Notes under the pieces: generated by a model
The model's input: only the letters and a program-made list of their open reading frames with translations
Told to the model about the DNA's origin: nothing
Databases searched by the model: none
Made by a program: the position numbers and the translations under genes
Part shown: one piece after another, positions 4,801 through 46,868 of the stretch
Layout: every line of letters starts with the position of its first letter
Numbering within the stretch: the stretch's first letter is position 1
Assembly: GCA_017456555.1 (NCBI GenBank)
Contig: JAFTJF010000013.1
Location: 31,329 to 95,328, forward strand
DNA length: 64,000 bases
Reading direction: 5' to 3'
Origin: Clostridia bacterium
GTDB taxonomy: Bacteria > Bacillota > Clostridia > TANB77 > CAG-508

Positions 4801-4815
4801 AAAGAGGTAAAAAGG

Positions 4816-5421
4816 ATGTTAAATAATATTAAAATCAGCCAAACTACAAATGAAATAATATTAAATGTTAATGTAATAGCAGATATAAATGAAATAATGG
4901 AAGAATTACAATCAAAACTTCCGAAATTAAGAGATTTCTATCAAACTTCTACAATTCCAATGAGAGTTACAGGAAGATTATTTACAGAATCTGAAATAAA
5001 GAAAGTAAAGGCTGCAATAAATGCAGAAATTCCCGTTGAAATAAAATTTGATGATATCTCAGATTTGCTAGGGCTACACGCAATTAAAAGAACTTTTGAA
5101 GTTGAAACAGACATATCAGAAACAAAATTTATACAAAATTCATTAAGATCTGGACACAGAGAAGAATATCCAGGAAGTATAGTAGTTTGTGGTGATGTTA
5201 ATTTTGGAGCTGAAGTGGTTGCTGGAGGAAATATAATGATTTTAGGTGCCTTAAGAGGAGTTGCTCATGCTGGTGCAAATGGAAATACAATGGCAATAAT
5301 TTCTGCAAATAATATTGATGTAACACAAATAAGAATCGCAAATTTAGTTAGAGAAGTTGGAGAAAAAGTTGATAAATGTCCAATTTGTAAAATAGAAAAA
5401 AATGAAATAATTATTGTATAA
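4816..5421 (+). CDS. minC: Septum site-determining protein MinC
   Basis: C-terminal beta-helix domain with GAEVVAGGNIMILGALRGVAHAG signature. Confidence 0.8.
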   Translation: MLNNIKISQTTNEIILNVNVIADINEIMEELQSKLPKLRDFYQTSTIPMRVTGRLFTESEIKKVKAAINAEIPVEIKFDDISDLLGLHAIKRTFEVETDISETKFIQNSLRSGHREEYPGSIVVCGDVNFGAEVVAGGNIMILGALRGVAHAGANGNTMAIISANNIDVTQIRIANLVREVGEKVDKCPICKIEKNEIIIV

Positions 5422-6243: not shown

Positions 6244-6509
6244 AATTATTGTACAGCGTTTTGACATAAAAGGCTTAAAAGACTTATATAAAGTTAGGTA
6301 TGTAACACAAATTTTATATTTAAAATGGGTGATGTTCTTGAAAAGGAACTTCCGTAAAGGGTTATAGGCGGAAAAAGTCATGAAAACCTAGAATATAAAG
6401 GGTTTGTATATTGACTACTTTAAAAAAAAGAGTAAAATTATACTTATAATAAAATAGTAAATTAAGATACTATGTCAAAAAATTTGTTATTATGGGAGGA
6501 ATTAAGATT

Positions 6510-11606: not shown

Positions 11607-11607
11607 T

Positions 11608-14600: not shown

Positions 14601-17600
14601 AAAAGTAGAAGATGCTAATTTAGTAAATAGAGATTATAAATTCTTAGTTGTTGTAAAAGGTGTAGCATTTAGATATACACATACAGATGGAACAGTATAT
14701 AATTGTGATTCTGATCAAATGCTACAAATATATGATGGTGGAGCAATTGTATTAGATGCTAATGCTGATTATGATTACGAAAAATTTATTACAATTAATG
14801 CTACATCAACAGATGGAGTAAATGGTACAGGAACTAAAGAAACAGGAACATTTACATGGTATGGAGATAAAGCTCCAAACTATATTGTAAAAGAAAACTT
14901 ACTAGGTGAAGATATTGCTTCATCAGTAGAACCATCAGAAGGAACTTTAGCTGCTGGTGAAACAGATACAATAGAAATTACAGCATGGAACAGAAGCACA
15001 GGTTCAAAAGGTGGATATATTCATATTATTAAAACATTAAAAGATGCTGAAAAATATTCAACAGAATATATAAGTTCTTTAGTGTTTAAATTTAAAATCG
15101 AGGTTGATGGTTACACAGCTACAACTGTAGCATTAGAACCAAAACTTGTAGATAATACATGGGTTTGGGAATATACTTCTGAAAGATATTCTTGGAAAGC
15201 TGATCAAGAAGCTCCAAACTATACAATTACAGAGGTTGATTTACCAGAAGGAACAGCATTCGAAAGTGCAACAGGTCCAGAAGGATCTACTGTAACAGGA
15301 GAATCTATAACAGGTAAATTAAAAGAAAGTGTTTCTCAAGAAGTATTAATAACAACTGATAATAGCTTTATAAATAAACTTACAGGTCCAAAAACAGATG
15401 AATTAATAATTGAGAAAAAAGTAACTCATGAATCTTTAAATGGAAAAGAATTTAATTTTGATGTAACTTTAAAAGGTACATGTGATTTCACATATACAGA
15501 TTTATCTGGCAACACTGTTAGTGAAAATATTACTAATAGCGAAAAAACAATTACAGTAAAAGTAATTGGTGGTCAAAAATCTGATCCAATAAAAGTTACA
15601 TGGTATGGAGACGTTGCTCCAAATTATGTAGTAACTGAGCAAGATTCAGACATAGCAAAACAAGTTTCAATCCAAAATGGTGCAGGAACATTTAGCTATG
15701 AAGAGGGAACACAAGTTGCCACATTTACTACAGTTGTAAACGAACCAAAATTAGTTGGTGGTCAATTAATTATTACTAAAAATATAGATAATGGATCACA
15801 AGATAAAGAATTCTTATTTGAAGTAAGAATTGGAGATGAAAACACTCCAAGTTATACAGTTTCAATAAAAGCTGGAGAACTTTATAAATCTGATATGTAT
15901 AAATGGTATATCACAGAAGATGCACCAAGATATTGGGTAAGAGAAATCAATCCAAACGATGGTTCAACTTCTAACTTAGGATATGATTGGCAAACAGGTC
16001 AATTAACATATGAAGGAAATGCAACAGTAACAGTAGATTACATAAATACATATGAAGATCATGAAGGAAAATTCAAAATCAAAAAAGTAGTTTTAGATGA
16101 AAAACTAATAGATACATCAAAAGATGCAGAATTTAAAATCATTGCAACAGTTTCAGGAACATATAATATAACTAAAGATGATGGTTCTGTAGTTGGTGTA
16201 AATAATGGTTCAAGATCATTTGATATTACTTTAAAAGGTGGAGAAGTATTTACATCACCAACAATTACTTGGTGGGGAGATGAAGCTCCAACAGTAACAG
16301 TTGATGAATATGAAATACCATTTGGATGGCAAAATATAGGTATATCAAACAATGGTGCATCTCTTTCTGAAGGGGAAGATTTGGAAATCATTGTAACAAA
16401 CGAATTACCAGTATATGTAACTCTTGATTTAACAACAAAATTAGGTGGTTCAGTTTGGGTAGATAAACCTTTAAATCCAGATGACAAAAACACAGAAAAC
16501 TCTGTTGAAAATGGAATCTTTGATAGAGGCGAAAATAGCAATGATTTAGCTAAAGAAGGTGTTGAAGTTTACGTTTATAAAGTTGTTGCTGATGGAAGCG
16601 GAAATGTTCAAGAAAGAACTCTTGCAACAGTATACAAAGATTTAAATAACACAGAAGTTTCACAACCTATAATTACAGATGCTACTGGTAGATGGGATGC
16701 TCCAAGAGTAAAAATTCCAACAGTAACAGATGAACAAAAAGCTAGTGGCTGGAAAGCATCATATGATGTAGAATTCGTATATGATGGTCAAACATATGAA
16801 CCAACAACATTTTTAGCAACATCAGGTGGAGATGTTTCTCAATTCTTGAATGCATCTACAGCTGAAAAAGATAATTTTGCTAACGATTCTATGGCAAAAG
16901 ATGTTCCAGAAATTAGAGCAGCTCTTAATAATAAAGTAGAAACAATTGCTGGAAGTAGTCCAATTGATGGTAATGGTGAAACAGTAGGTACTGCAATAGC
17001 TGCAGACGGTTCTGAATCCAAATTACATTATCAATCAAGAGATATTTCTGGTGATGTTGTAAGAATAGATGGAAGTGCTTCAAAAATTAAATCTGAGTTA
17101 GTAACTACAGATGAAAATGGAATTGCATTAGATTTATTTAAAGCAACAGCTACTACAGGAACTGCAGGATTAACATTCCCATTCTATCGTGATACACAAG
17201 AATGGAATGGTTTCAGACTATATAATCAAAATACTTCAATAACTGAATTAGGAGTTGAACAAAGATATTGGTTTGAAGCAGTATATAATTATTGTTTAAA
17301 TATTAACTTAGGATTAGTTGAAAGACCAGATGCAGACTTAGGTGTAGCTAAAGACTTGTATTCAGCTACAGTAACTGTAAAAGGTGATGGAAATAAAACA
17401 GATTTATATTCATACAGATTTAATTCATTATCAGATATAGGTGCAGATTACTATACAAGACAATTAGAAGATCAAGCAGTAACTGCTGAATATACTTTAG
17501 GTCTATATAGTACAGATTACTATTATAGAGCTGAAATGTATCAAACAAATGAAGCTAATTCTGAAGATATAATATATGACAAAATAATTAATATGGAGAA

Positions 17601-31700: not shown

Positions 31701-33762
31701 ATGGGATTTGGTGATAAATTAAAATCAGCTATTAGAAAAATAAAAGGAAAATTAATAGTATTTGGCATACTAATTGTAGCTATTGTAATATGGTTAGTTA
31801 TGCCATTTTGTGTTGCTAAAGTAAATGCAGATATGGCAGCAGGTCACACATTTTTGCAAAACATGAATGGTTCAACCTGGTGGAGTACTTTCCTAATGGA
31901 AATGGGAAGTGGTTTATCTGCACCTTGGACAAAAATAGGAACTTGCTTTACTGAAAATTACATAGGAACATTTTTACAAGCAATGAAATGGACTCTTATT
32001 TTTTCAGGTTTAGCTGCTCTTGTAGGAGTTGCAAAAGCATTTCCAAAACATGAATATCAAGACATTGAAAATGGTTCAAGTGATTGGTGTGAAGGTGGAG
32101 AACAATATAAAGTTTTAAGCAAAAAGAACGGTATAATCTTAGCAGAGCAAAACTACTTACCAGTAGATAAACGTGGTAACGTAAACGTACTTGTTGTACG
32201 GAGGTTCTGGTGCTGGTAAATCAGCTTCTTACGTTATACCAAATGCTTTACAATTATTAGGATCTTATGTATTTACAGATCCTAAAGGAGAGCTTTATGA
32301 TAAAACAGCAGGTTACTTTAAATCAAAAGGATATGAAGTAAAAGTATTAAACTTAGTAAGACCACAAAACAGTGATGGTTATAACCCATTACATCACATA
32401 AATAATGAAATAGATGTTGACATTATCGCAAACACAATTGTTAAAGGACAAGGTGATGGTGGTAAAAGTTCAGACCCATTCTGGGATGACATGTCAGAAA
32501 TGTTAATGAAAGCATTAATCTATTACTTAAAAGCAACAAGACCTTTAGAAGAACAATCATTATCAAGTTGTTCAGAATTAGTTAGAACAGCAAACAGCAG
32601 CGGTGGAGATAACTTACTTACAAACTTAATGAATCAATTACCATTTGATCACCCAGCTAGAATGTATTATAAAAACATAGAGATGTTACCAGAAAAAACT
32701 TTTGGTTCTGTACTTGGTACATTACAATCTAAACTAGGTAAATTCGACTCAAGAGAAATTGCTGAAGTAACATCAACAAATACAATAGATTTTACAGATA
32801 TAGGAAGAAAGAAAACAGCAGTATATGTAATTTCTTCAGATACACATACAGCTTATGACTTCTTATTAACAATATTCTTCTCACAAATGATTCAACAATT
32901 ATATGACTTTGCTGATGCAAGTGGAGGAGCACTTCCTGTACCTACATATTTCATCTTGGACGAGTTTGCTAACATCGGACAAATCCCAGACTTTGATAAA
33001 AAGATATCTACATCAAGAAGTAGAAAAATTTCATTTAGTGTTATTTTACAAAACTTAGACCAATTAGAGGACGTATACGAAAAAGCTTATGAAACAATCA
33101 TAGGTAACTGCGATACTCACCTTTTCTTAGGATCTAACTCACAAAAAACAGTTGAATATTTCTCTAAAGCTCTTGGTGAAAAAACAATTACAAGAGACAA
33201 CGTTTCAGTAAATAAAGATAGAGAAGACTGGAAACAAGGTAAGAGTGAATCAGACCAAATTATGGGTAGAGCTCTTATGACACCTGATGAATTAAGAAGA
33301 ATGGATAATGACCTTTGTATTATTTATGAAAAAGGTATTAAACCAATCAAAGCAAACAAATATTACTACTTCAAATATAAAACAGGAAAAATTGTTGATA
33401 GATATAAAGTTGATCACAATGACGTTAACATAGAAAGAGGAGTATGGAGAAAATATAATCCATATAATCCATATGTTGAAGGTTCAGAAGATGGAGCAAC
33501 AGGAACTGGAGGAGGAGCTGCAAACTCTTTAGAATCATTAGATGATTTATTTGCAGATGATCCAGAAGAAGTAAATGTTGCAAGTCCTGTATCAAATACA
33601 GATGCTCAAAAAACAGCAGCTTCAAGCAGTATGGGACCAATAATGACTCCAGAAGAAAAAGCTGAAGAAGAAAAGAGACAAGCTGAACTTATAGATATTC
33701 AAAAAGAACTTGAAGCAAAATTCGATGAATTATTCGGTTCAATAGATTCAGATGATGATTAA
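31701..33762 (+). pseudogene. Type IV coupling protein (VirD4/TraG/TraD family) disrupted by a +1 frameshift near 32195
   Basis: N-terminal TM segment in frame 0 ends ...NVNVLVVRRFWCW*; Walker A YGGSGAGKS and Walker B YFILDEFANIG continue in frame +1 from 32191. Confidence 0.7.
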
Positions 33763-33770
33763 TATAAAAA

Positions 33771-33797
33771 GATGCTAATTTTTAGCATCTTTTTTTG
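33771..33797 (+). terminator. Rho-independent terminator (agatgctaa-ttttt-agcatct, then T7)
   Basis: inverted repeat plus T-run directly after T4CP stop. Confidence 0.6.
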
Positions 33798-33885
33798 TAC
33801 TTAAAATTTTAAAAATATATTATAAATTTTAATAAAAATTATTGAATTTATAAAAAATAATAAAGAATAAATGTTCGTTTTATTA

Positions 33886-33914
33886 TTGACTGAAAAATCT
33901 TATTATGATAGAAT
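33886..33914 (+). promoter_or_regulatory. Sigma-A type promoter TTGACT-17-TAGAAT
   Basis: ttgact 33886-33891, 17-nt spacer, tagaat 33909-33914, ~30 nt upstream of sbcD-like start. Confidence 0.5.
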
Positions 33915-33942
33915 TTAAAAATCAATGAAAAGGAGATAATAA

Positions 33943-35016
33943 ATGAGATTTGTACATATAGCAGATATGCATTTTGATATACCATTTACATCTTTAAATA
34001 ATAAAGAAGATTTGGGTGAAAAAAGAAGATTAGAACAAAGAAATGCATTTAAAAAAGTAATTGAATATATAAAAAAGAATCATGTAGAATATTTATTTAT
34101 TGCAGGTGATTTATATGAACACGATTATGTTAGAAAATCAACAATAGATTATATTTCAAAACTATTTGATGAAATACCAAACACAAAAATATTTATAACT
34201 CCAGGAAATCATGATCCATATATTAAAAATTCATATTATGATACTTATGAATTTGGTGAAAATGTATATATTTTTAGAAATTCTAGAATTGAAAAATATG
34301 AAGATGAGAATGTAAATATTTATGGAATGGCATTTACAGAATTTTTTATGGAAGAATCTCCTTTAGAAAAATTATCTTTGCCAGTTTCTAATAAACCAAA
34401 TGTATTAGTAGCTCATTGCGATTTAAATGGGGCAAAAGACAAAGAAGGATTTTCATACAACCCAATTCTTGAATCAAAATTAAATTCGCTAGGATTTGAT
34501 TATGTGGCTTTAGGACATATTCATAAAAATAATTTAGAAAATACAAATAAAATTTTCTATCCAGGCTCAACAATAGCACTTGGCTTTGACGAATTAGGTG
34601 AACATGGAATGATTGTTGGAGAAATCTTAAATGGAAATGTAAATATAGATTTTATAAGGTTAGATGATAGAAAATTTGAAGAAATAGAGCTTAAGGTGGA
34701 TGAGTTTTCTTCAAAAGAAGATTTAATAGATAGAATCCTAAATTTAAATTTAGACGATATGGATTTATATAAATTAATCTTAGTTGGAAATAGAAATTTT
34801 GAAATAAACACAAGAGAAATTTTAAGAGTAGTATCCAGAGAAAATGTTTTAAAAGTAAAAGATTGTACAAAAATCAATTACGACTTAGAAGAACTTTCAA
34901 AACAAAAAAATCTAAAAGGAATATTTATTAAAGAAGTTCTAGAAATGTATAATAAAGGATTATGTACTGAAGAAGAATATCAAAAGGCAATCGAAATTGG
35001 ATTAGACGCTATGTAA
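33943..35016 (+). CDS. Mre11/SbcD-family metallophosphoesterase (YhaO-like DNA repair exonuclease)
   Basis: N-terminal HIADMHFD and GDLYE / GNHD calcineurin-like phosphoesterase motifs. Confidence 0.75.
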   Translation: MRFVHIADMHFDIPFTSLNNKEDLGEKRRLEQRNAFKKVIEYIKKNHVEYLFIAGDLYEHDYVRKSTIDYISKLFDEIPNTKIFITPGNHDPYIKNSYYDTYEFGENVYIFRNSRIEKYEDENVNIYGMAFTEFFMEESPLEKLSLPVSNKPNVLVAHCDLNGAKDKEGFSYNPILESKLNSLGFDYVALGHIHKNNLENTNKIFYPGSTIALGFDELGEHGMIVGEILNGNVNIDFIRLDDRKFEEIELKVDEFSSKEDLIDRILNLNLDDMDLYKLILVGNRNFEINTREILRVVSRENVLKVKDCTKINYDLEELSKQKNLKGIFIKEVLEMYNKGLCTEEEYQKAIEIGLDAM

Positions 35017-35029
35017 GGAGAGAAAAGAA

Positions 35030-36910
35030 TTGAAAATTAATAATCTAAAAATAAATGGTTTTGGTAAGTTAAAAGATAAAGAAGTAAATTTTAAAGATGG
35101 AATAAACTTAGTGTATGGAGAAAATGAATCTGGAAAATCAAGTATGCTTAAATTTATATCAAGTATGCTATATGGAGCTTCAAAAAATAAAAACGGAAAA
35201 GATATTTCAGATTTTGATAAATTTAAACCATGGCAAACAGAAGAATTCTCAGGAAAACTAGAATATACTTTAGATAATGGTGAATCTTTTGAAGTTTATA
35301 GAGAATTTAAAAAGAAAAATCCTGTAATTTATAATTCAAAAAAAGAAGATATTTCTAAAACTTTTACAATAGATAAAACTAAAGGAATCGAATTCTTTGA
35401 AGAACAAACAGGAATAGATGAAGAAACTTTTTATAATACAGCAATAACAGAACAAGAAGGAATTAAACTTAGTAAATCTAGCCAAAACAGTATAGTTCAA
35501 AAAATAAGTAATTTAATATCTTCTGGAGATGATAATATATCTTTCAAAAAGTCTTTAGACAAAATCAATAAGAAACAAAATGAAGAAGTTGGAACAGAAA
35601 GAACATCTCAAAGACCTATTAATAATGTTGAAAATAAAATTAGAAGTTTAATAAATGAAAAAAGAAATTTAGAAACTTATAGAGAAAACATCTATGATAA
35701 TTCATTAGAAAAAGAACAATTAAAATTAGAAGAAAAAGATGAAGAAATCAAAAAAGAGTTTTTAAAAGAAATTAAAGTAAAATTAGATAATAACAGAATA
35801 AAAAGTGCAGAAATTAATTTTAACAGAAACTTAGAAAAAGAATATAATGAGAAGATTGAAGAACTAAATAAAAAGATATCTAAATCAGAAACAACAGAGC
35901 AAATACAAGAAATAAATAATAGAAACTATTACATTATAATAGCAATAATTTTAATAACCTTTGTTGTAGTAACAATTTTAAATAGTTTTAAATTAATAAA
36001 TTTTGTTGTTTTATTACCTTTAATATTTGTTTTCTACAAAATGAGTAAATCAAAAGAGAACTTGAGAGAAAAAGAGAAAAATAGAGATTTAGATAGAGAA
36101 AAAGTAATTCATGAAATAGAAGTTTTACGTGAAAATAGAGAAAATCAAAAGTTAGAAGCTGAGGAAAAACAAGAAAAATTATCTAATGAAATTGAAAAAG
36201 ACAAAAACGAACTAATAGAAAAATATACTAAATTTTTAGATTTAGGTTTTATGGAAGAAAACTTAGATAAAAACTATGATGAGATTTTAAGAGAAATTGA
36301 AAGAAAAGAAAATCGTTTAAATACAATAAAATTCAGACTACATACAATGGAAGCAAGTTCAGAAGAAATAAATAGAAAACTAGAAAACTTGGCTCAAATA
36401 GAAGAAGAACTTCAAGATGCAGAAACAGAAAAAGATGAATTACTATCTTTAAATAAATCTTATAACATAGCAAAAGAATGCTTAGAAAGAGCATATGAGC
36501 AAGTTAAAGAATCAATTAGTCCTCGTTTTACAGAAAATCTTTGTGATATAATTTCAAAGATTTCAGATGGAAGATATAAAAATGTAGTATTTAGTGATAC
36601 AGATGGTTTAAGAGTAGAAATTCAAAATGGAAATTATATACCAGCTTCTAGGCTAAGCACAGGAACAATAGATCAAATGTATATTTCATTAAGATTAAGT
36701 GCATTAAATGAAATGACAGATGAAGCAATGCCAATAATTTTAGATGAAGCTTTTGCATATTTTGATAATGACAGATTAGCAAATATATTAAAATATTTAA
36801 ATAATAATTTTAAAGAAAATCAAATAATAATATTCACATGTTCAGATAGAGAAAAAGATATTTTAAATAAACTAAATATAGAATATAATATAATAAACCT
36901 TGAAAAATAG
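35030..36910 (+). CDS. SbcC/Rad50-like ATPase (YhaN-like) with a central hydrophobic segment
   Basis: N-terminal Walker A GENESGKSS, long coiled coils, C-terminal ABC signature/D-loop region (ILDEAF); two TM-like helices around aa 300-340. Confidence 0.7.
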   Translation: MKINNLKINGFGKLKDKEVNFKDGINLVYGENESGKSSMLKFISSMLYGASKNKNGKDISDFDKFKPWQTEEFSGKLEYTLDNGESFEVYREFKKKNPVIYNSKKEDISKTFTIDKTKGIEFFEEQTGIDEETFYNTAITEQEGIKLSKSSQNSIVQKISNLISSGDDNISFKKSLDKINKKQNEEVGTERTSQRPINNVENKIRSLINEKRNLETYRENIYDNSLEKEQLKLEEKDEEIKKEFLKEIKVKLDNNRIKSAEINFNRNLEKEYNEKIEELNKKISKSETTEQIQEINNRNYYIIIAIILITFVVVTILNSFKLINFVVLLPLIFVFYKMSKSKENLREKEKNRDLDREKVIHEIEVLRENRENQKLEAEEKQEKLSNEIEKDKNELIEKYTKFLDLGFMEENLDKNYDEILREIERKENRLNTIKFRLHTMEASSEEINRKLENLAQIEEELQDAETEKDELLSLNKSYNIAKECLERAYEQVKESISPRFTENLCDIISKISDGRYKNVVFSDTDGLRVEIQNGNYIPASRLSTGTIDQMYISLRLSALNEMTDEAMPIILDEAFAYFDNDRLANILKYLNNNFKENQIIIFTCSDREKDILNKLNIEYNIINLEK

Positions 36911-37023
36911 GTAAAAATAGGTTATAATATTATGTGCGTGAAATTTAAAATAACAATATAAAAATAAAATATAAATTTAATCACGAAATTGTAAGTGATA
37001 AAAAGTAAAAGGAAGAGGTTTTT

Positions 37024-38085
37024 ATGTTTCAAAGATTAGAAGACGTAGAAAAAAGATATGAAGAACTAAATGTTTTAATTAGTGATCCAGACGTAATCGC
37101 AAGACAAAACGAATGGAAAAACTATATGAAAGAACATAGTGATATTGAAGAAATAGTTCTCAAATACAGAGAATACAAAACAGTAAAGAAAAATTTGGAA
37201 GATGCTAAAGAAATGCTAGATGACCCAGAAATGAAAGAATTAGCAGAAATAGAAATGTTAGATGCTAAAGAAAAACTTCCAAAATTAGAAGATGAATTAA
37301 AAATTCTTTTAATACCAAAAGATCCAAATGATGATAAAAACGTTATTTGTGAAATTAGAGCTGGTGCTGGTGGAGAAGAAGCAGCATTGTTTGCTGGAGT
37401 ATTATTTAGAATGTACTCAATGTATGCAGAAAAAAATCGTTTCCAAATACAAGTAATATATGAAAATGAAACAGGAATCGGTGGATATAAAGAAATATCT
37501 TTCATGATTACTGGAAAAGGAGCTTATAGTAGATTTAAATTCGAAAGTGGTGTACACAGAGTACAAAGAGTTCCAGATACAGAAAGTAGTGGTAGAATAC
37601 ATACTTCTACAGCTACAGTAGCAGTACTTCCAGAAGTTGAAGATGTTGATGTTGAAATAAATCCAGCAGATATTAGAATGGAAGTGTTTAGAGCTTCAGG
37701 TGCTGGTGGACAACACGTTAATAAAACATCATCTGCTGTTAGATTAATTCACGAACCAACAGGAATTGTTGCTGAATGTCAAACAGAAAGATCACAACTT
37801 CAAAATAGAGAATATGCAATGAGAATGCTTAGATCAAAAATCTATGATATAGAAAGAGAAAAACAAGAAAAAGCAGTTGCAAGTGAAAGAAAGAGTCAAG
37901 TTGGTTCTGGAGATAGAAGTGAAAAAATTAGAACATACAACTATCCTCAAGGAAGAATAACAGACCATAGAATTGGATTTAGCGTATTCCAATTTGAAAA
38001 CTTCTTAAATGGAGATATGGATGAAATGATAGACAACTTAATTGCAACAGACAGAGCAGAAAAACTAAAAGGAAATAATGACTAA
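37024..38085 (+). CDS. prfA: Peptide chain release factor 1
   Basis: GGQ motif ([11 protein letters not shown]) and RF1-type tripeptide region (PDT in place of canonical PxT); 353 aa, no internal frameshift. Confidence 0.8.
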
Positions 38086-38171
38086 TTAAATAAAAATTAA
38101 TCAAACAAAATCAATAAAAAAGAAGAACTTGTAAGAAAAATCTTATAAGTTCTTTTTTGTTTATATAATAA

Positions 38172-38980
38172 TTAAATAAGTTGAGAAAAAAGTCCAAGTA
38201 TTATTCCAGAAATATTTCCAAGAGATGCAAATCTACCAGAATATCTTTGTTTTGACTCTGGAATTAGCTCACAAGTAACGATATAAAGCATGCAACCAGC
38301 TGCAAAACTAAGAGAAAATCCTATAAATGTTAAAGAAATAGAACCTAAAATCGCGCCAAAGAAAGCTCCAAAACCAGTCATAACACCAGAAAGAGTTGTT
38401 ATAATTATTGCCTTTGATTTTGAGATACCACTATTTTTTAGTGGGAGGGAAATTGATATTCCTTCTGGAATATCATGAAGAGCAATTGCTATTGCTAGTT
38501 TTAATCCTAAAGAGCTAGAAGACTCAAAACCAGAACCGGATAGCTAATCCTTCAGGAAAGTTGTGAATTGCAAGTCCAGCAGCAACAACTAAACCTGTTT
38601 TTAGCAAAGAATTGGAAGTCGTTTTAGAAGATAAAGAAATGCGTTTTTTAATTAAATCATTACAAAGAATCATTATTAAGCTTCCTATTATAATTCCAAA
38701 AATACAGAAAGAAATATTAATAAATTCTAAAGCTTCAGGAATTAAGTCAAAGCAAATAATTGATGTCATAAGGCCGAGCTGCAAATTCTAAAATAAAACA
38801 AAGAAATTTATTTGATTTTAAATTAATGAATGCACCTATAAATCCACCTAAAAAAGTTCCAATAATTCCAAAAATAAGACCATAAAAACTAGTAAGACCT
38901 AAATTTTCCATAACAAAATAATTCCTTATTAAAAATATTTTTATAAGAAAATATATTAAAGGGAAATAAAAAATATTCAA
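38172..38980 (-). pseudogene. ZIP-family zinc transporter (ZupT-like) broken into at least 3 frame segments
   Basis: fragments 38747-38980 (N-terminus), 38524-38784 (HNFPEGLA signature) and 38172-38381 (C-terminus, LIPES) are co-linear but in three frames; middle part readable in a fourth frame. Confidence 0.65.
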
Positions 38981-39126
38981 AACAATAAAAATAAATTAAT
39001 AAAATAGTAAGATTAGATAGAAGATAATAAAAAATTTAAATAAAAATAAAACTTAGAAGAAAAATAGAAAATATAATAAGAAATTAAAAAAATTGAGAAA
39101 AAGGAAAAATATAAAAAATAAAACAA

Positions 39127-39165
39127 ACCGTCAAACCTAACGGAAATAAGAGGTTTGACGGTTGA
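39127..39165 (-). terminator. Rho-independent terminator (13-bp stem aaccgtcaaacct / aggtttgacggtt)
   Basis: perfect 13-bp inverted repeat; on minus strand followed by U-rich tract; immediately downstream of the 39196-39783 gene. Confidence 0.6.
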
Positions 39166-39195
39166 ATTTAAATTATCTTAATAATTTTTAAAAAT

Positions 39196-39783
39196 TTATT
39201 TTTTTTCTTCATTATATCTTAAAATCATTTTTCTTTGATAAGGAATTAATGAAAGGAATGAAATAGAAAGTCCAATAACTAAGATAACTGTCGATCTTGT
39301 TAAATTTGTTTTTGATTCATCAAAAACACTATTCATTTCTGACTGAAGAATTTTTATATGGTTTTCTGAAAATACTTCTCTATATTGTACACTTGCAAGT
39401 TCAATTGATTTTAATTGATATTCTAAATTTAAGTGAAGTAAGCTTAAAAATAAAATAATAGATAAAGCGATACAAATAATAAAGAAAATATTTAATGATT
39501 TTACTATTAATTTATAATTTTTTGGATCTGTTTTACATTTTTTGAATACGTCATAAGTGCTAAGTCTGCAAATAGCACGAATAATGAAATATAGAAAAAT
39601 TACAGATATTAGTGGAAGTGTTATATATAATCCACTGGCAGTACTACTTGAAAATTGACCTAAATAATAATTTCCTACTGCAAAAAATAATAAGCAAATA
39701 AAAATTGTTATTATTCCATATGATACGAACCCTGTAATTATTGCCTTAACAGTAGTTCTGGCTGATATTTCTTTCTTTTCCAT
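39196..39783 (-). CDS. Hypothetical polytopic membrane protein (195 aa)
   Basis: 4 predicted TM helices, ORF with terminator downstream. Confidence 0.45.
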   Translation of the reverse strand: MEKKEISARTTVKAIITGFVSYGIITIFICLLFFAVGNYYLGQFSSSTASGLYITLPLISVIFLYFIIRAICRLSTYDVFKKCKTDPKNYKLIVKSLNIFFIICIALSIILFLSLLHLNLEYQLKSIELASVQYREVFSENHIKILQSEMNSVFDESKTNLTRSTVILVIGLSISFLSLIPYQRKMILRYNEEKK

Positions 39784-39936
39784 ACTTTTTTCCTCCGTAC
39801 ACTTTTCTAATAAAAATCATATCACAAACGAAAAATAATTACAAGATAAAAAAATATAGTGAAGAAATTTGTTGCATTTTGTAAAGTTATAAGTTATAAC
39901 TAAAGTATATAGAAAATTCTTAAGGGGGATTTGAAA

Positions 39937-40275
39937 ATGGAAGAATACAAAAAAATGTGGAAAAATTATGCCGTATTTAGCGGAAGATCAACAAGAAGAG
40001 ATTACTGGATGGCTTGTTTATTTAATTTTGTAATTTCTTTAGCAGTAGGAGTTGTTGCAGGAGCTCTTGGATTAGGATTTTTATCAATATTATATTCTAT
40101 AGCAGTTATAATTCCAGGACTTGCATTAAATTTTAGAAGATTACATGATACAAATAGAAGTGCTTGGTGGTTATTAATTTCATTAGTACCACTAGTTGGA
40201 GTAATTGTTTTATTAGTATTTTATTGCTTACCTACAGTAGAAGAAGGAAACAGATTCGGAGAAATAGTAGAATAG
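39937..40275 (+). CDS. DUF805-family inner membrane protein
   Basis: SGRSTRRDYW motif typical of DUF805, 3 TM helices; RBS AAGGGGGA (ORF frame opens at TTG 39931). Confidence 0.6.
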   Translation: MEEYKKMWKNYAVFSGRSTRRDYWMACLFNFVISLAVGVVAGALGLGFLSILYSIAVIIPGLALNFRRLHDTNRSAWWLLISLVPLVGVIVLLVFYCLPTVEEGNRFGEIVE

Positions 40276-40282
40276 ACTAAAG

Positions 40283-40310
40283 TAAAAGGATACATTTATG
40301 TATCCTTTTT
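40283..40310 (+). terminator. Rho-independent terminator (aaaggatacat / atgtatccttt)
   Basis: inverted repeat followed by T-run. Confidence 0.5.
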
Positions 40311-40382
40311 AAATACAAAAAATAGGGAGTTATAATGAAATTAGTTGAAAATGTCGAGGAAAACGAAAAATGATTTTCTATT

Positions 40383-40886
40383 ATGCTAGTTATGATTTCA
40401 ATTGGGTGTGCAATTTTAGTATTACAAAGAATAATTGATGTTATCCAAGGAAGTACATATATGATATATTTTGCAATAATTTATGCAATTCTTCCTTGGA
40501 TATTTTATAAATTTTCTAAAATTTTAAATACTAGAAATGCAGATAGAAAAGATTTAAAGGAAACTGGAACAAAAGTAAAAGGTGAAATAGTTGATATTAA
40601 AAAACTTAAATACTATAGAAGTAGTAGAATTTCTCAAACTTTAGTGGTTGTATTTGATAATAAAAGTACAATGATATATGATATTTTAGAAAATGATGCT
40701 TTTAGCATATTAAAGATGCTACTAGATGAATATCCATTTGAAACAGTAAATACTGTGCCAGTTGATGTATATACTTACAAAAACAAAGTGTACGTGGATT
40801 TAGAAAGTGTTGATTTATCTAAAGTTGATGGCTATGAAGAAGCAGTAAAAATGTTAGAAGATATAAAAGATGATATGACGATGTAA
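40383..40886 (+). CDS. Hypothetical membrane-anchored protein (167 aa)
   Basis: two N-terminal hydrophobic helices, soluble C-terminal domain; terminator at 40895-40938. Confidence 0.4.
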   Translation: MLVMISIGCAILVLQRIIDVIQGSTYMIYFAIIYAILPWIFYKFSKILNTRNADRKDLKETGTKVKGEIVDIKKLKYYRSSRISQTLVVVFDNKSTMIYDILENDAFSILKMLLDEYPFETVNTVPVDVYTYKNKVYVDLESVDLSKVDGYEEAVKMLEDIKDDMTM

Positions 40887-41123
40887 AATAAAAAAATGAG
40901 AAGGCAATATTTATACAAAGTCTTCTCATCTTTTTTTGGAGGCGCCAGCCCTTCTTGTCTGTTGAAAGTATTGATAAATAAGCATTTTATTTTTAAATGG
41001 AGACATTGGAGACAAATATGAAATCTAAATATATATTAATATTTTTATAATCATAAAAAATTATTGAAATCTATTTTTTATTAATATATACTCATATATA
41101 TAACTTGGTTTAAGGAGAATTTT

Positions 41124-43106
41124 ATGCTAGTTTTAGATAAAATTAACAATTTTAAAAATATGATACAATATTATGAAGGATGGCTAAATGCTATAAATAT
41201 GTTAAGACCAAATAATACAAAAAAAGATATAAAAGGTCTTATAAAATCTTATATGACGAATCCTCTTTCAATGACTTTGTCAAATATTATGAATCTATCT
41301 AGGTCTTTACTGGCTTTAGAACAGGAACAATTAGATGTCATAAAAGGAAGTCCAAATACTGCCGATTCATCAAAAATGAAAAATATTCAAGACAAAATAT
41401 TATCAGAAGTAAATGTTTTTAATAAAATTCAAGTTTATCCAGGGAAAACAGGAACAGATGCGGATGTGTTTTTTCAATTGAGAAATGCATTAGCGCACGG
41501 AAATTTTTCTTGTTCAATAAATAAATATTATTTTAATGAGCAAATATTAAATTGGGCTGTTAACGATATGGTAGTTAATATTGATAATGGTAAAATACAT
41601 GGACAGATAACATATGAAGAACTACAAGAAATTTTAAGAAGTTATGAATGTGCTTCAGATGCAATGGGATTTAGAAAGTTAGAAAGATTTATACCAGTAC
41701 AAAATGATTTTGAAAAAGTAGTATTTACTGCAACTAAATGTGAAGGACAAGAAGGTTTTTGTATTAATGCACCACAATTTATATATGAAAACTATAAATC
41801 TGTGATGGATGAAGATATAGTTCATGAGTTTAGCTCTCAACAAGCAGTTTTGGGAAACAATACATTTGATGCAAGCAGGGGGGAAATTACTAATCATGAA
41901 AAGCAACAATTAGAACAAATTAAGAGATTTATAGGGGAAGAACGTTGGAAAAATCTATCAGCTGAATATAAGTATAGGCTTGCTAATGATTATATACTTA
42001 GTACATCACATAAAAAAACACAAAGTGTTGATAGAATGATTAATGGTTTTCGTTATCTGGGAAATGTAGATAATGAAAGAAAAAAATTTAATATGGAAGA
42101 AATCTATTATTTAGAAGCACCATTGTTTTATTCGAATTTTATGATTGAATATGCATTTTATTGCTTTGACTATGCGAGAGAAATAAATGGAAAAGAAGCT
42201 ACAAACATATTTTATCATGAGAATATTTCATTAGATGGAATTAACGTGGTAAATAATGGAACAGAACCTCTAGAAAAAGAGAAAAAATATTCTACAAGAT
42301 ATAGAGAAAAGAAAGAACGATATGAAAAAGAAATAAAAGATACATTAAATTCAATATCAAATTTAGTTTCAACAAATAATTTAGAAAATAGAAGACCAGA
42401 TAGAGAGATAAAAAATAACGAAGCAAAAGTGGAGTTAATAGGAAAAAAATTAGATGATATATATACAGGATTAACAGATAGAATACATATTGAAAAAGGA
42501 ATTTCAAAAGATGTAGCCTATGAAAAAATAAAAAAATATATTAATAATACTTATAAAATGTCTGAACTTAGTGATGAAGATAAAGGTTTTGTAAGAAGTT
42601 TAAATACAATTATAAATAATTATAAAAACAAAACTGTGGGATATAATATGAGTGATTTAGATTCAAGATTAAAAAAAGTTGAAGAAAAATTACAATATTA
42701 TCAAGAAAAACCATATAAAGATAAATACAAGGATAGTGCAGTGTTTTTTACACATTTTAGAAATGCAATTGCGCATGGAAACTATACGATAGATTATTCT
42801 AATGCAATGCGTGACGGTTTTGTGGATTATAATAAAATTTTATTTTCTTTTAAAAATGTAGATCCAACGACACATGCTACTGTTTTTGAAATAAAAAATA
42901 TTAGAGGGAAAAGGTTAAAATCTTTAATAGAAGATTTTTGTAAGAGTGTAGAAAAAAATGCAGAATTTAATGACAAATCAGATATGTTAGAAAAAAATTT
43001 AATAAGAGAAGCATTACTATCAAAAATGGTTACCTATAGTGAATCTGAAAGAATATATGATCAATCATTAGGAAAAGAAGTAGGTGTTCAATATGTTGAA
43101 GAGTAA
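41124..43106 (+). CDS. Dual-HEPN-motif protein (660 aa) with two R-N-x-x-A-H-G-N motifs at aa 120-125 and 546-551. Candidate RNase, defence or abortive-infection effector.
   Basis: FFQLRNALAHGNF (nt 41481-41504) and FTHFRNAIAHGNY (nt 42759-42782) match the HEPN Rx4H catalytic motif; AAGGAGA RBS; no similarity to housekeeping families recognised. Confidence 0.6.
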   Translation: MLVLDKINNFKNMIQYYEGWLNAINMLRPNNTKKDIKGLIKSYMTNPLSMTLSNIMNLSRSLLALEQEQLDVIKGSPNTADSSKMKNIQDKILSEVNVFNKIQVYPGKTGTDADVFFQLRNALAHGNFSCSINKYYFNEQILNWAVNDMVVNIDNGKIHGQITYEELQEILRSYECASDAMGFRKLERFIPVQNDFEKVVFTATKCEGQEGFCINAPQFIYENYKSVMDEDIVHEFSSQQAVLGNNTFDASRGEITNHEKQQLEQIKRFIGEERWKNLSAEYKYRLANDYILSTSHKKTQSVDRMINGFRYLGNVDNERKKFNMEEIYYLEAPLFYSNFMIEYAFYCFDYAREINGKEATNIFYHENISLDGINVVNNGTEPLEKEKKYSTRYREKKERYEKEIKDTLNSISNLVSTNNLENRRPDREIKNNEAKVELIGKKLDDIYTGLTDRIHIEKGISKDVAYEKIKKYINNTYKMSELSDEDKGFVRSLNTIINNYKNKTVGYNMSDLDSRLKKVEEKLQYYQEKPYKDKYKDSAVFFTHFRNAIAHGNYTIDYSNAMRDGFVDYNKILFSFKNVDPTTHATVFEIKNIRGKRLKSLIEDFCKSVEKNAEFNDKSDMLEKNLIREALLSKMVTYSESERIYDQSLGKEVGVQYVEE

Positions 43107-43539
43107 CGTATATAATGAAATTTTAGAGATTTTAAAATATATTCCATCGTATGATTTTGAAAAAATCCCAGAAACAGTTTTAGAAGATTTTAGAAAAAAG
43201 AAAGAAGAATGTTATGATTTTTCTTTTGATTTAGATAAACCTTTAGAACAACAAGAAATATCAAGAGATACATATATATTATTTGTAAGTATTTATAAAA
43301 ATTATATTGCAAATGAATATGAAAAAAATAAGATAAATGAAATGCTGAGATTAAATGAGTTAGCAAAAAGCAAAAAAAGTGAAATAAAATATTCTCAAAA
43401 TGTATTTAAAAAACGAGAAAAAATAAATAAGAAAATAACAAATGAAGTGTTAGAAGAAAAAATGATTATTGTTTATAAAAAAGATTTTTGGAATAAAATA
43501 ATAGAAAAAATAAAAAGATTGTTTGTTAGGAAAAAATAA
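43093..43539 (+). CDS. Small basic protein (148 aa from ATG) translationally coupled to the dual-HEPN gene
   Basis: ATG at 43093 overlaps the upstream stop (…aatATGttgaagagTAAcg); Lys-rich, no TM; terminator follows at ~43551-43586. Confidence 0.5.
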   Translation: MLKSNVYNEILEILKYIPSYDFEKIPETVLEDFRKKKEECYDFSFDLDKPLEQQEISRDTYILFVSIYKNYIANEYEKNKINEMLRLNELAKSKKSEIKYSQNVFKKREKINKKITNEVLEEKMIIVYKKDFWNKIIEKIKRLFVRKK

Positions 43540-43642
43540 AAAATTATTGTTAAGTGTCTCCTATATGAGAGTGGGGACACTTTTTAAAACGAAAATAAAA
43601 ACTAGCAATTCCTACTTACGTAAGTGTTTGCTAGTTGTTCTA

Positions 43643-43716
43643 TGGAGGCGCCTATCGGAATCGAACCGATGATCAGAGTTTTGCAGACTCGTGCCTTACC
43701 GCTTGGCTAAGGCGCC
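43643..43716 (-). tRNA. tRNA-Cys (anticodon GCA)
   Basis: revcomp GGCGCCTTAGCCAAGCGGTAAGGCACGAGTCTGCAAAACTC...CCA folds as cloverleaf with GCA anticodon. Confidence 0.8.
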
Positions 43717-43744
43717 GTGTTCTATATAATTTTAGATAAAAAAA

Positions 43745-43820
43745 TGGAGCGGGAAACGGGGCTCAAACCCGCGACCTATGCCTTGGCAAGGCATCGCTCT
43801 ATCAACTGAGCTATTCCCGC
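43745..43820 (-). tRNA. tRNA-Gly (anticodon GCC)
   Basis: revcomp GCGGGAATAGCTCAGTTGATAGAGCGATGCCTTGCCAAGGCATAGGTCGCGGGTTTGAGCCCCGTTTCCCGCTCCA. Confidence 0.8.
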
Positions 43821-44020
43821 GTCAAAATTAACGCATAACTATAATAACAAAAAAAAAAGAAAAAGTCAATACTAATTATTTGATATATTTTAAAATCTTT
43901 AAACAATATAATAATTACCTAATCTAAGTTATTTCTAAAATAAATTTAAATACAATAAGGAATAGTTCTATTTTATTATATGCAAAAAATTTTATTTTGT
44001 TATATTTTTTATAAAAATAA

Positions 44021-44050
44021 AAAGCCTCTATTTTAAATAGAGGCTTTAAA
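44021..44050 (-). terminator. Rho-independent terminator for SPFH gene (aagcctctattt / aaatagaggctt)
   Basis: 12-bp inverted repeat, U-rich tract on minus strand. Confidence 0.55.
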
Positions 44051-44063
44051 CATATTCAATTAA

Positions 44064-44873
44064 TTATATATCTAAAAATGGTATTACAGAATCACCTGTA
44101 ACTGTGGATGGTAGGTTACCATTCCATTTTTCAATAAATTTGTTTTTAATTTCTAATTCTTTTAATTTTAATGCATTTTCAGTTGTACTAGAATCTTGAA
44201 CTTGCATTACTTTTGCGTTAGCTTCAGCTTCAGCAATTTTCTTTTCATTTTCAATTTTTGCTTTTTCTAATTCATATTCAGCTTGTTTTGCTTCTTGTTC
44301 AGCAACTTGTTTTTTCTCAATAGCTTGGTTATATGCTGCAGAGAAATCTAAGTCTGTGATGTTGAAGTCGATTACGCTGAATCCTCTAGATTCAATTTTT
44401 CCTTTTAAAGATTCTTCCATTTTATCAGAAACTTCAGATCTTTTTGTTATAAGCTCTTCTGCTGTGTATTGAGCTGTAACACTTTTTACACTTTCTAAAA
44501 TTGAAGGGCTAATCATGATTGATTCATAATTTACACCAATATTTTTATAAATAGAGTATGCGTTATCTACAGTAACATTATAGTTAACTGCAACTTTTAG
44601 AGTAACCTCTTGTAAGTCTCTACTTGCTGTAGAACAATCGATTTCTGCTTTTTGTGTTCTACAATCCATAAGTACAATTCTCTCTATCATAGGTATTTGT
44701 AAATTTAAACCTTCTTGAACAATGTCTTGATTTGCTTTACCAAATCTTGTTCTAATACCAACATATCCAGTTGGTACAGATGTGAATGAACTAAATAATA
44801 TTGATAAGAATATCAATACAAATAATATAATTACTGCTAAAATAATTTTAGCTTTTATCGATGTAGCTTTCAT
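44064..44873 (-). CDS. SPFH/band-7 (prohibitin/HflC-like) membrane protein
   Basis: N-terminal TM, SPFH domain (VPTGYVGIRTRFGK...), C-terminal coiled coil. Confidence 0.75.
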   Translation of the reverse strand: MKATSIKAKIILAVIILFVLIFLSILFSSFTSVPTGYVGIRTRFGKANQDIVQEGLNLQIPMIERIVLMDCRTQKAEIDCSTASRDLQEVTLKVAVNYNVTVDNAYSIYKNIGVNYESIMISPSILESVKSVTAQYTAEELITKRSEVSDKMEESLKGKIESRGFSVIDFNITDLDFSAAYNQAIEKKQVAEQEAKQAEYELEKAKIENEKKIAEAEANAKVMQVQDSSTTENALKLKELEIKNKFIEKWNGNLPSTVTGDSVIPFLDI

Positions 44874-45119
44874 AAAATTCCTCCTTTGTTTTCCGTTTAT
44901 GAATTTTCAATACATTTATATTATATCATATTATTAACATAAATGCAAATTATTGGTTTACTAGAACGAAAAATGTCAATAAAACAAAGAAAAAACTTCT
45001 TTTATTTTACATAAAATTAAAAACGATAAGAAGTTAAGCTAACCATAATTTAACTATATATTTATTTGTAAAGTAGATAGTTTTATGATAATATGTAACT
45101 GATTTTAAAGGAGGTAATT

Positions 45120-45539
45120 ATGGAATATAGAAAATTTGATAATACTTATGTTGTAAGATTAAACAAAGGTGAAGAAGTTATTGGATCTTTAAAAGAACTT
45201 TGCAGAAATGAAAATATTGAACTTGCTGAAGTAACAGGACTTGGCGCAAGTGATTTAGTTGAAATTGGAGTATTTAATGTAAATACAAAAGAATACAATA
45301 CAAAAGTATTTGAAGGTATGTTTGAAATTACTTCTTTGGTAGGAAATGTAACTAGAAAAGATTCAGAAGTTTATCTTCATATTCATATAAATTTTGGAGA
45401 TGAAGATGGAACTGTAAAAGGTGGACATTTAGTAAAATCAAGAATTTCTGCAACATCAGAAATTATAGTTAGAAAAATAAATGGAAATGTTGGAAGAAAA
45501 TTAAGTGATGAAATTGGTTTAAATTTATTAAAATTTTAG
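45120..45539 (+). CDS. PPC (DUF296) domain protein
   Basis: 139 aa; LxSGEEVIxxLxE...LTGIGA...HLHI pattern typical of PCC/DUF296. Confidence 0.55.
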   Translation: MEYRKFDNTYVVRLNKGEEVIGSLKELCRNENIELAEVTGLGASDLVEIGVFNVNTKEYNTKVFEGMFEITSLVGNVTRKDSEVYLHIHINFGDEDGTVKGGHLVKSRISATSEIIVRKINGNVGRKLSDEIGLNLLKF

Positions 45540-45590
45540 TGAATAAATTAATGTAAGAATTAGAATACTATAAAGAAAAAGGAGATTTTA

Positions 45591-46868
45591 ATGAATAAGG
45601 TTAGTTTAGAATTGAAACAAGGGATAAAGGCTCATTTTATTAATACAGATTTATATAAAACTGATCTTTCTTGTATCATAATTACAACACCACTTAAAAG
45701 AGATACTGTTACAAAAAATGCTTTAATTCCATTTTTATTAAGAAGAGGTACAAAAAAATTACCTAACTTATCAGAAATAAATAAGAAAATGGAAGATATG
45801 TATGGAGCATCTTTTAATTGTGGTATAGATAAAATGGGAGATAATGTTGTTTTGAAATTCTATATAGAATCAATAAACAATGATTATGCTCTTAATAATG
45901 AAGATGTTTTAAAAATGAATTTAGAAAGTTTACTTGATATTGTATTTGATCCGGTACAAAATGGAAATCTATTAAATGAAGAATTTTTAAGTTTAGAAAA
46001 AGAGAATTTGAAAAAAGTAATTAATAGGAAAATTGATGATAAGGATTCATATGCATTAGAAGCATGTATTTCTAAAATGTATGGTGAAGAAAAATTTGGA
46101 TTATATAAATTTGGATATATTGAAGACGTTGATAGCATAACAATTGAAGAGATTTCTGATTACTATAATTGGTTAATTCAAAACTCAAAAATAGATATTT
46201 TTATTTCTGGAAATTTAAAGGAAGATGAAGTAAAAGAATTATTAAATAATAATCCTAACATAAAAAAATTAAGACCAAGAACAGAAAATTATATTTTGAA
46301 TAATGAATTCACAGAAAGTAAACAAATTGTGGAAAACGTTACTGAAATTTCAGAAAAAATGGATGTTACACAAGGAAAACTTGTAATGGGATTAGACATA
46401 GTTTCAGATATGGAAAATTTACAAGTTACATCATTAGTGTATAATGCAATTTTAGGTGATGGCGCTAATTCAATGATGTTCCAAAATGTAAGAGAAAAAG
46501 CAGGACTAGCATATTCTGCAAGAAGTACTTTTGTGAAACAAAAATTAAATATATTTATTAGATGTGGAATTCAAATTGAGAATTATGAAAAGGCAGTAAA
46601 AATTATTAAAGAACAATTAGAGAATATCAAAAAAGGTAATTTCACAGAAGAAGATATTCAAAATAGTAAAACATATTTGATTTCATCTTTGAAAAGTGTT
46701 GAAGAAGAGCAAGATACAGAAATTATTTATTATATTGGACAAGAAATTTCAAAAATGAATATGACTATAGATGAATATATTGAAAAAATTGAGAAGGTAA
46801 CAAAAGAGCAAATTGTAGAACTTGCAAATTCTGTTCATTTAAATACAATTTATTTTTTACGTTCTTAA
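45591..46868 (+). CDS. M16-family peptidase-like protein, probably non-catalytic partner (M16B)
   Basis: insulinase-like two-domain fold, lacks HxxEH. Confidence 0.65.
   Translation: MNKVSLELKQGIKAHFINTDLYKTDLSCIIITTPLKRDTVTKNALIPFLLRRGTKKLPNLSEINKKMEDMYGASFNCGIDKMGDNVVLKFYIESINNDYALNNEDVLKMNLESLLDIVFDPVQNGNLLNEEFLSLEKENLKKVINRKIDDKDSYALEACISKMYGEEKFGLYKFGYIEDVDSITIEEISDYYNWLIQNSKIDIFISGNLKEDEVKELLNNNPNIKKLRPRTENYILNNEFTESKQIVENVTEISEKMDVTQGKLVMGLDIVSDMENLQVTSLVYNAILGDGANSMMFQNVREKAGLAYSARSTFVKQKLNIFIRCGIQIENYEKAVKIIKEQLENIKKGNFTEEDIQNSKTYLISSLKSVEEEQDTEIIYYIGQEISKMNMTIDEYIEKIEKVTKEQIVELANSVHLNTIYFLRS

Follow-up and report, generated by a model that had tools for sequence, protein, structure and literature searches.

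A tandem-HEPN protein with a small operon partner in uncultured Clostridia: a candidate toxin-antitoxin or abortive-infection type module

To our knowledge, the active site of every characterised HEPN RNase consists of two Rx4-6H motifs that are joined at a HEPN-HEPN interface. Such RNases normally need two chains for each active site, and the main exception known to us is Cas13, which joins its two HEPN motifs within one chain. In the RnlA-RnlB and LsoA-LsoB systems a HEPN RNase toxin is encoded upstream and a small antitoxin downstream, and these systems have an anti-phage role. This report concerns two adjacent genes, encoding a protein of 660 amino acids (aa) and a partner of 148 aa, in a stretch of 64,000 nucleotides (nt) from an uncultured gut Clostridia bacterium (assembly GCA_017456555.1, contig JAFTJF010000013.1, positions 31,329 to 95,328 of the forward strand). 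The whole stretch is referred to as the window, and coordinates are counted from its first letter. The 660-aa protein is predicted to contain two HEPN units in a single chain. By analogy it may be described as resembling RnlAB and LsoAB in having a HEPN toxin-like gene followed by an antitoxin-like one, and Cas13 in carrying the HEPN pair on one chain, and as a member of neither group. No description of a tandem-HEPN architecture with this partner was found in the literature searched, and neither protein had a significant match in PADLOC, Pfam or NCBIfam scans.

The large protein is encoded by the open reading frame (ORF) 41124..43106 on the plus strand (NCBI MBQ7411121.1, annotated as 'hypothetical protein'). 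The first-pass annotation of this DNA had pointed out two copies of R-N-x-x-A-H-G-N, one near each terminus, and both are indeed present. The first (41481..41504, plus strand, residues 120-127, FFQLRNALAHGNF) reads R120-N-A-L-A-H125-G-N and the second (42759..42782, plus strand, residues 546-553, FTHFRNAIAHGNY) reads R546-N-A-I-A-H551-G-N. A regular-expression scan found exactly these two copies and no other Rx4H match in the protein. RNALAH at 120-125 and RNAIAH at 546-551 both have the form expected of a HEPN motif, Rx4-6H with a polar residue (N, D or H) after the arginine.

Identical copies of both window proteins are found in NCBI, originating from a metagenome-assembled genome of a Clostridia bacterium. 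Word-indexed searches, using either the single sequence or a 57-sequence profile, returned only the identical protein and one relative of 40% identity, probably because the candidates of this method were saturated by low-complexity, AT-rich words. The 40% relative keeps both motifs and has an overlapping gene for a 144-aa partner. A search with an 11-sequence alignment gave five genome loci and six metagenome loci, and an exhaustive hidden Markov model (HMM) search of 1.84 billion cluster representatives (clusters at 50% identity) gave a family of 83 proteins at E <= 1e-3, 46 of them at E <= 1e-10. The members are mostly 550-780 aa long, and the genome-derived representatives come from uncultured Clostridia.

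Across an alignment of 57 family members R546 and H551 never vary, and conservation is at least 90% for N121, H125 and N547. The N-terminal arginine is replaced by lysine in eleven members, including P0054, which gives KNxLAH or KNxLSH. All full-length aligned members carry (R/K)NxxxH in the N-terminal part and RxxxxH, nearly always RNxxxH, in the C-terminal part. Loss of the motifs among homologues had been named beforehand as an outcome that would speak against a HEPN protein, and the opposite was found. Since the conservation is family-wide, both motifs must be under selection, far beyond what chance would give.

The two motifs lie in units that are related to each other. The N-terminal HEPN-like unit covers approximately residues 47-181 (41262..41666, plus strand), and the C-terminal unit, of the pEK499_p136 type, approximately residues 484-615 (42573..42968, plus strand). 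When aligned with hhalign the two match with a probability of 96.4% (E 1e-9), the alignment taking in the motif, the β segment behind it and the next helix; one HEPN type has thus been duplicated within the 660-aa protein. The profile matches of the motif regions are to HEPN families only (pEK499_p136, MAE_28990, Apea, and RiboL-PSP). The only recurrent one is to the HEPN family pEK499_p136 (PF18736), which is matched by 19 of the 57 members; P0008 passes the model with 29.9 bits (gathering cut-off 26.6), and the N-terminal units of two members match it weakly. The window protein itself stays below this threshold of 26.6 bits, with no match at E <= 1 and one precomputed match described as 'faint'. 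Its two halves both match HEPN_MAE_28990 (E 0.003 and 0.006), and the PADLOC model RTasHEPN matches residues 102-127 (E 3e-4), in all cases sub-threshold. Judged by these scores, the domains would be placed at the edge of the pEK499_p136 family, the window protein itself falling under the threshold of that model.

An AlphaFold2 (AF2) model based on the 57-sequence alignment reached a mean predicted local distance difference test score (pLDDT) of 81.9 and a predicted template modelling score (pTM) of 0.82, and was read at the level of secondary structure; a model based on two sequences only (pLDDT 47.5) was unusable. The predicted N-terminal unit consists of helices, a motif-ending helix, a β meander and a long helix, and the C-terminal unit is modelled with pLDDT > 90. 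Helix 115-124 runs up to the first motif and helix 539-550 to the second, and in each unit a β insert follows and then a long helix (164-181 and 595-615, respectively). In HEPN domains the motif is positioned where helix-3 ends, and some families have a β insert after it (Anantharaman et al., 2013, PMC3710099). The predicted secondary structure of both units agrees with this, the motif ending helix-3 and the last helix following. Foldseek searches with the model against PDB and BFVD gave no significant match. From the profiles and the model, we conclude that both units are probably HEPN domains of the pEK499_p136 kind, arranged in an overall architecture without a solved counterpart. The likeness to pEK499_p136 lies in the unit itself and in the motif type, RNxxxH followed by an insert and the last helix. 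However, the Pfam model describes a single domain of about 150 residues, while the present family has two units fused in a chain of 550-780 aa, with a middle part of about 300 aa and an obligate small partner. The claim of HEPN-type motif units in the first-pass annotation is thus supported, as the units are homologous to each other, match HEPN families only, and have their motifs at predicted helix ends.

The middle region, approximately residues 182-483 (about 300 residues; 41667..42572, plus strand), is made up, in the AF2 model, of a segment of low confidence, a helical stretch and a long hairpin of helices, the last of which is modelled very confidently. The family profile of this region weakly resembles the Dictyostelium homeodomain-like protein MatB (PDB 5nr6_A, E 1.5e-4) over approximately residues 257-312 (about 41890-42060 in the window). 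This match hints at a helix-turn-helix-like nucleic-acid-binding segment, AT-rich bias being another possible source of it.

The partner is encoded by 43093..43539 on the plus strand (148 aa, isoelectric point (pI) 9.2, NCBI MBQ7411122.1, also annotated as 'hypothetical protein'). Its ATG at 43093 is preceded, six nt upstream, by the Shine-Dalgarno-like sequence AGGTG, and lies within the end of the 660-aa gene, the two genes overlapping by 14 nt (43093..43106, plus strand). The overlap had been taken as a sign of translational coupling; such coupling is probable, and the partner is conserved as an operon mate. A promoter-like site, TTGAAA-17 nt-TATACT (41064..41092, plus strand), precedes the operon, as a pattern match from a consensus scan only, and AAGGAG at 41112-41117 (plus strand) is a likely ribosome-binding site of the 660-aa gene. 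Following the partner gene is a predicted intrinsic terminator, a hairpin with a T-run (43554..43585, plus strand; RNA fold -14.9 kcal/mol, z -3.3). The gene upstream of the operon has its own terminator hairpin (fold z -4.5). Just downstream, on the minus strand, are the convergent genes for tRNA-Cys (43643-43716) and tRNA-Gly (43745-43820), which have a separate terminator on that strand. The two genes thus appear to form an autonomous bicistronic unit, being bracketed by their own promoter-like site and terminator while the neighbours are terminated separately.

Using local HMMs, the partner gene was found directly downstream of the large gene in all of the 10 distinct loci where this could be checked; the loci covered were the window, L001, L007, L008, L009, L010/11, L016, L017, L026, L027, and also L037. 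As in type II toxin-antitoxin systems, two adjacent genes that are co-transcribed according to the predicted promoter and terminator are thus kept as a pair. In seven of the nine loci measured the partner ORF shares its first 1-20 nt with the large gene, and the pairwise identities of the large proteins and of the partners co-vary weakly (Spearman 0.36). The partner is built from a conserved N-terminal domain of about 90 aa (YNEILEILKxIPxxDYxKIP...), a variable linker rich in Lys and Glu, and a conserved C-terminal amphipathic helix, which is missing in the 97-aa partners of L009 and L010. It matched nothing in Pfam, NCBIfam, PADLOC, PHROGs or PDB. A profile search gave at least 250 relatives, none of which carries a Pfam domain or is named informatively.

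Partner homologues are also found where there is no tandem-HEPN gene, downstream of at least four unrelated proteins. In two sets of loci (L012-L015, 6218-8417; L039-L041, 4228-6417) a partner copy follows a pair of genes encoding proteins of 380/389 and 221/199 aa, for which no family match was found. Together with the partner these make up a second conserved module, with 60% and 36% identity between its versions. One copy of this module has an integrase as its neighbour and belongs to an integrative mobilizable element with relaxase and replication genes, and another is located between dnaJ and rnr. Further homologues are found directly after a 333-aa protein (L019, 3998-5477), overlapping a 292-aa protein by 8 nt (L042, 6130-7447), and after a 616-aa Amidoligase_2 protein (L018, 7203-9594). 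The 380/389-aa, 333-aa and 292-aa proteins are unrelated to the tandem-HEPN family and to each other, and the Amidoligase_2 protein is likewise unrelated to the family. In the Amidoligase_2-linked setting a RelQ-like synthetase is found nearby; such RelA_SpoT neighbours were considered as a link to toxSAS toxins and rejected, and they are not counted as evidence for a toxin since the protein is a full-length match to the housekeeping enzyme YjbM/RelQ. A 682-aa protein near a partner copy in L021 was rejected as a family member, being unrelated and without Rx4H. In L026 two extra tandem partner paralogues (4249-5138) are found about 3 kb upstream of the tandem-HEPN/partner pair.

One small downstream gene shared by unrelated upstream genes is a pattern that, indirectly and by analogy, would suggest a promiscuous antitoxin or immunity module. 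Panacea (PanA/DUF4065) was reportedly described by Kurata and co-workers in 2022 as a hyper-promiscuous antitoxin domain. The likeness concerns the partner only: one family of small proteins stands beside many unrelated putative toxins, in mobile elements among other places. The two are, however, not related in sequence, and the partner gene is found downstream where Panacea is found upstream.

The window is an ordinary piece of spore-former chromosome, encoding a penicillin-binding protein, SpoIIE, YpeB, a Mur ligase, Ddl, SbcCD, and PrfA, and the neighbourhood of the pair is core chromosome and not a defence island. The adjacent tRNA genes had been read as an integration hotspot. That argument did not hold up, since neither an integrase among the neighbours nor a tRNA-derived direct repeat in 33700-43830 bounds the pair, and both would be expected of a tRNA-integrated genomic island. 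At the other family loci examined, on which no tRNA scan was run, tRNA genes were not seen next to the pair either, and integration at a tRNA site was rejected on these grounds. Strain-level contigs around the window locus break at the tRNA genes. Elsewhere the pair is found after rpsF-ssb-rpsR, after acc/fab genes, and near metK/recN, the setting differing by lineage. Two related species have it in synteny and by vertical inheritance, with identities of 85% for the large protein and 87% for the partner compared with 89-99% for the flanking genes. The large gene is frameshifted in L017 (4070-6017), where the partner is intact; it shares 98.9% nt identity with the intact copy in L016, with 14 gap positions over 2.1 kb. 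In L028 (246-2094) it is split, and the locus ends before any partner position. These broken genes, both from metagenomic loci, could be either real pseudogenes or assembly errors.

A different setting is seen in L037. This locus encodes a 627-aa family member with both motifs, a strong precomputed match to PF18736, and a partner. The hsdR gene of a type I restriction-modification (R-M) system ends 22 nt upstream of the pair, MqsA/Panacea and Ymh-HEPN genes follow the pair, and the locus is thus a defence island. Published work has linked pEK499_p136 HEPN genes in operons to R-M, ART/Macro, and Pgl genes, and the R-M setting of L037 matches this reported linkage to R-M and Pgl systems. The homologue inside a type I R-M and toxin-antitoxin island gives indirect support for a role of the abortive-infection or toxin type.

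With moderate confidence, the pair may be regarded as a module of the toxin-antitoxin or abortive-infection type, in which an antitoxin-like partner accompanies a regulated single-chain HEPN-pair RNase. Within that chain, both HEPN units would pack together and form one composite, metal-independent RNase site; this packing is proposed because of the analogy with the interfacial sites of other HEPN RNases and with Cas13, where the pair is found in one chain. The site would cut cellular RNA (tRNA, rRNA or mRNA), leading to growth arrest, and the middle region of about 300 aa would gate the pairing of the units. Through the overlapping start the small basic partner would be made in a fixed ratio to the large protein. 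The partner would act as an antitoxin-like inhibitor or regulator, keeping the nuclease inactive until it is triggered, for instance by phage infection or by loss of the partner. As in RnlAB and LsoAB, a large HEPN gene comes first and a gene for a small, unrelated protein directly downstream. No sequence relation to RnlA or RnlB was detected in Pfam and NCBIfam scans, and RnlA has one HEPN domain and dimerises, while the 660-aa protein has two units in one chain. The system also differs from the HEPN-MNT pairs, as the partner is not a nucleotidyltransferase (no family match) and the gene sizes and architecture are unrelated.

Several observations weigh against a toxin-antitoxin or abortive-infection type module. 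The juxtaposition of the motifs rests on analogy, the AF2 model having been read at the level of secondary structure, and the HEPN matches of the window protein itself are sub-threshold only (E 0.003-0.03). A protein of 660 aa is large for a classical toxin, and the partner matches no known antitoxin family. The window and most of the other loci have housekeeping genes around the pair, and defence genes, integrases or att repeats were not found among them. No family members were found in phage, plasmid or viral-contig collections. The synteny and vertical inheritance described above would also fit a lineage-specific housekeeping role.

The other explanations differ in how they account for the partner and for the motifs. 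It is conceivable, if somewhat unlikely, that the genes encode a two-component defence system in which the tandem-HEPN protein is still an RNase and the partner, instead of inhibiting it, serves as a sensor, adaptor or downstream effector, for instance as an activator responding to a phage product or as a membrane-acting helper, comparable to Csx28 with Cas13b. The modular partner family with its several unrelated upstream proteins, the conserved C-terminal amphipathic helix and basic pI, the coupled order of large gene first and partner second, and the member in the R-M/toxin-antitoxin island would all be compatible with this. However, the 97-aa partners lack the C-terminal tail altogether, and the partner sequence has no sign of a sensor or membrane domain and no family match.

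An unlikely explanation is that the protein is a lineage-specific housekeeping enzyme of certain Clostridia, acting in maturation or turnover of rRNA or tRNA with the small protein as a cofactor and with no role in conflict. HEPN domains can serve such functions, as the HEPN protein Las1 acts in RNA processing in eukaryotes. The core-genome settings (after rpsF-ssb-rpsR, near prfA and tRNA genes, after acc/fab, and near metK/recN) point in this direction, as do the syntenic inheritance between related species and the failure to find the family in phage, plasmid and viral collections. A housekeeping enzyme would, however, hardly be expected to be so rare, the family accounting for about 83 of 1.8 billion clusters (50% identity), nor to occupy a different position in every lineage. 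The member inside the R-M/toxin-antitoxin island, the partner paralogues on a mobile element, the frameshifted copies, and the fact that the nearest Pfam family is linked to defence also argue against it.

It is very unlikely that the HEPN-like units are non-nuclease and the protein a regulatory or structural factor; such a role is considered because HEPN folds can serve to bind ligands or substrates. The sub-threshold HEPN scores of the window protein, the weak fold matches and the weak homeodomain-like match in the middle region would fit such a factor. HEPN domains without catalytic activity have typically lost the Rx4-6H motif (PMC3710099), however, and here both motifs, including the polar Asn after the Arg, are kept in essentially all members.

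The first-pass annotation had related the motifs to those of the Abi_2 and Cas13 HEPN domains, and had argued against a Cas13 because no CRISPR array was nearby. The latter argument was confirmed, in that the window showed no CRISPR-like repeats, and neither there nor at any fetched family locus did a CRISPR-like array turn up. The suggested kinship was not: the profile matches go to the four HEPN families named above and never to Abi_2, and no Cas13-like architecture was found. The Abi_2 model (PF07751) matched neither the full protein nor the isolated N- and C-terminal domains at E <= 10, and membership of that family was accordingly rejected. AbiD and AbiF (Abi_2, PF07751) are similar in being stand-alone, non-CRISPR HEPN proteins with RNxxxH and a link to phage defence. 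However, Abi_2 proteins have a single HEPN domain, and no associated non-coding RNA (ncRNA) is found here; an Rfam search of 38000-46000 gave the two tRNAs only and no AbiF-type RNA (RF03085, as cited in PMC12165695). The HEPN subtype also differs from the AbiD/F-like type proposed as the ancestor of Cas13 (PMC12165695).

The resemblance to Cas13, including the compact Cas13bt and Cas13an, lies in the two HEPN domains per chain, with R-N-x3-H near each terminus and, as we infer for the present protein, an intramolecular composite site. The differences are that a CRISPR array, a space for a guide RNA, a Cas13-like fold, and any sequence or profile relation are lacking. The intergenic spaces at the family loci are short and variable with no conserved guide-RNA space, no Cas13-type profile matched even at E <= 10, and neither a Cas13-like bilobed fold nor sequence similarity was found in the fold and profile searches. 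The two RNxxxH motifs near the ends of one chain and the proposed origin of Cas13 from a fusion of two HEPN genes (PMC12165695) might suggest that the protein is a miniature RNA-guided effector of the Cas13 type or directly related to Cas13. This interpretation is exceedingly improbable, and it was rejected in view of the missing arrays, fold match and ncRNA. The resemblance is probably due to an independent fusion.

Some other features of the window may be mentioned. Upstream of the operon, at 38172-38980 on the minus strand, three short consecutive ORFs (69, 86, and 77 aa) have motifs of ZIP/ZupT-like transporters, for instance HNFPEGLAI, and together look like a frameshifted metal-transporter pseudogene. 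A lone gene for a TraG/VirD4-type conjugative coupling protein (Pfam T4SS-DNA_transf, E 2.7e-82) is found at 32191-33762, with three small ORFs before it and sbcCD after it in an otherwise core chromosomal region, and may be a remnant of a conjugative element. Two giant genes are adjacent to each other, one (6492-11606) encoding a protein of 1704 aa with SdrD_B/DUF11 surface-protein domains and the other (11599-20307) a protein of 2902 aa with no Pfam match.

Taken more broadly, and as a tentative possibility only, the 660-aa protein could be a non-CRISPR single-chain HEPN dimer that arose through duplication or fusion of a pEK499_p136-type domain. It would then be run by a highly promiscuous antitoxin or regulator domain that is new to annotation and that serves several unrelated toxin-like proteins of gut Clostridia, including some on mobile elements. 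If this is true, the family would be a natural and independent case of the architectural step by which Cas13 is proposed to have arisen, and would offer a compact scaffold on which the gating of an intramolecular HEPN site could be studied. The unannotated partner family, with at least 250 relatives and its recurrence downstream of unrelated proteins, could be a new module of general antitoxin or regulatory function in uncultured gut Clostridia.

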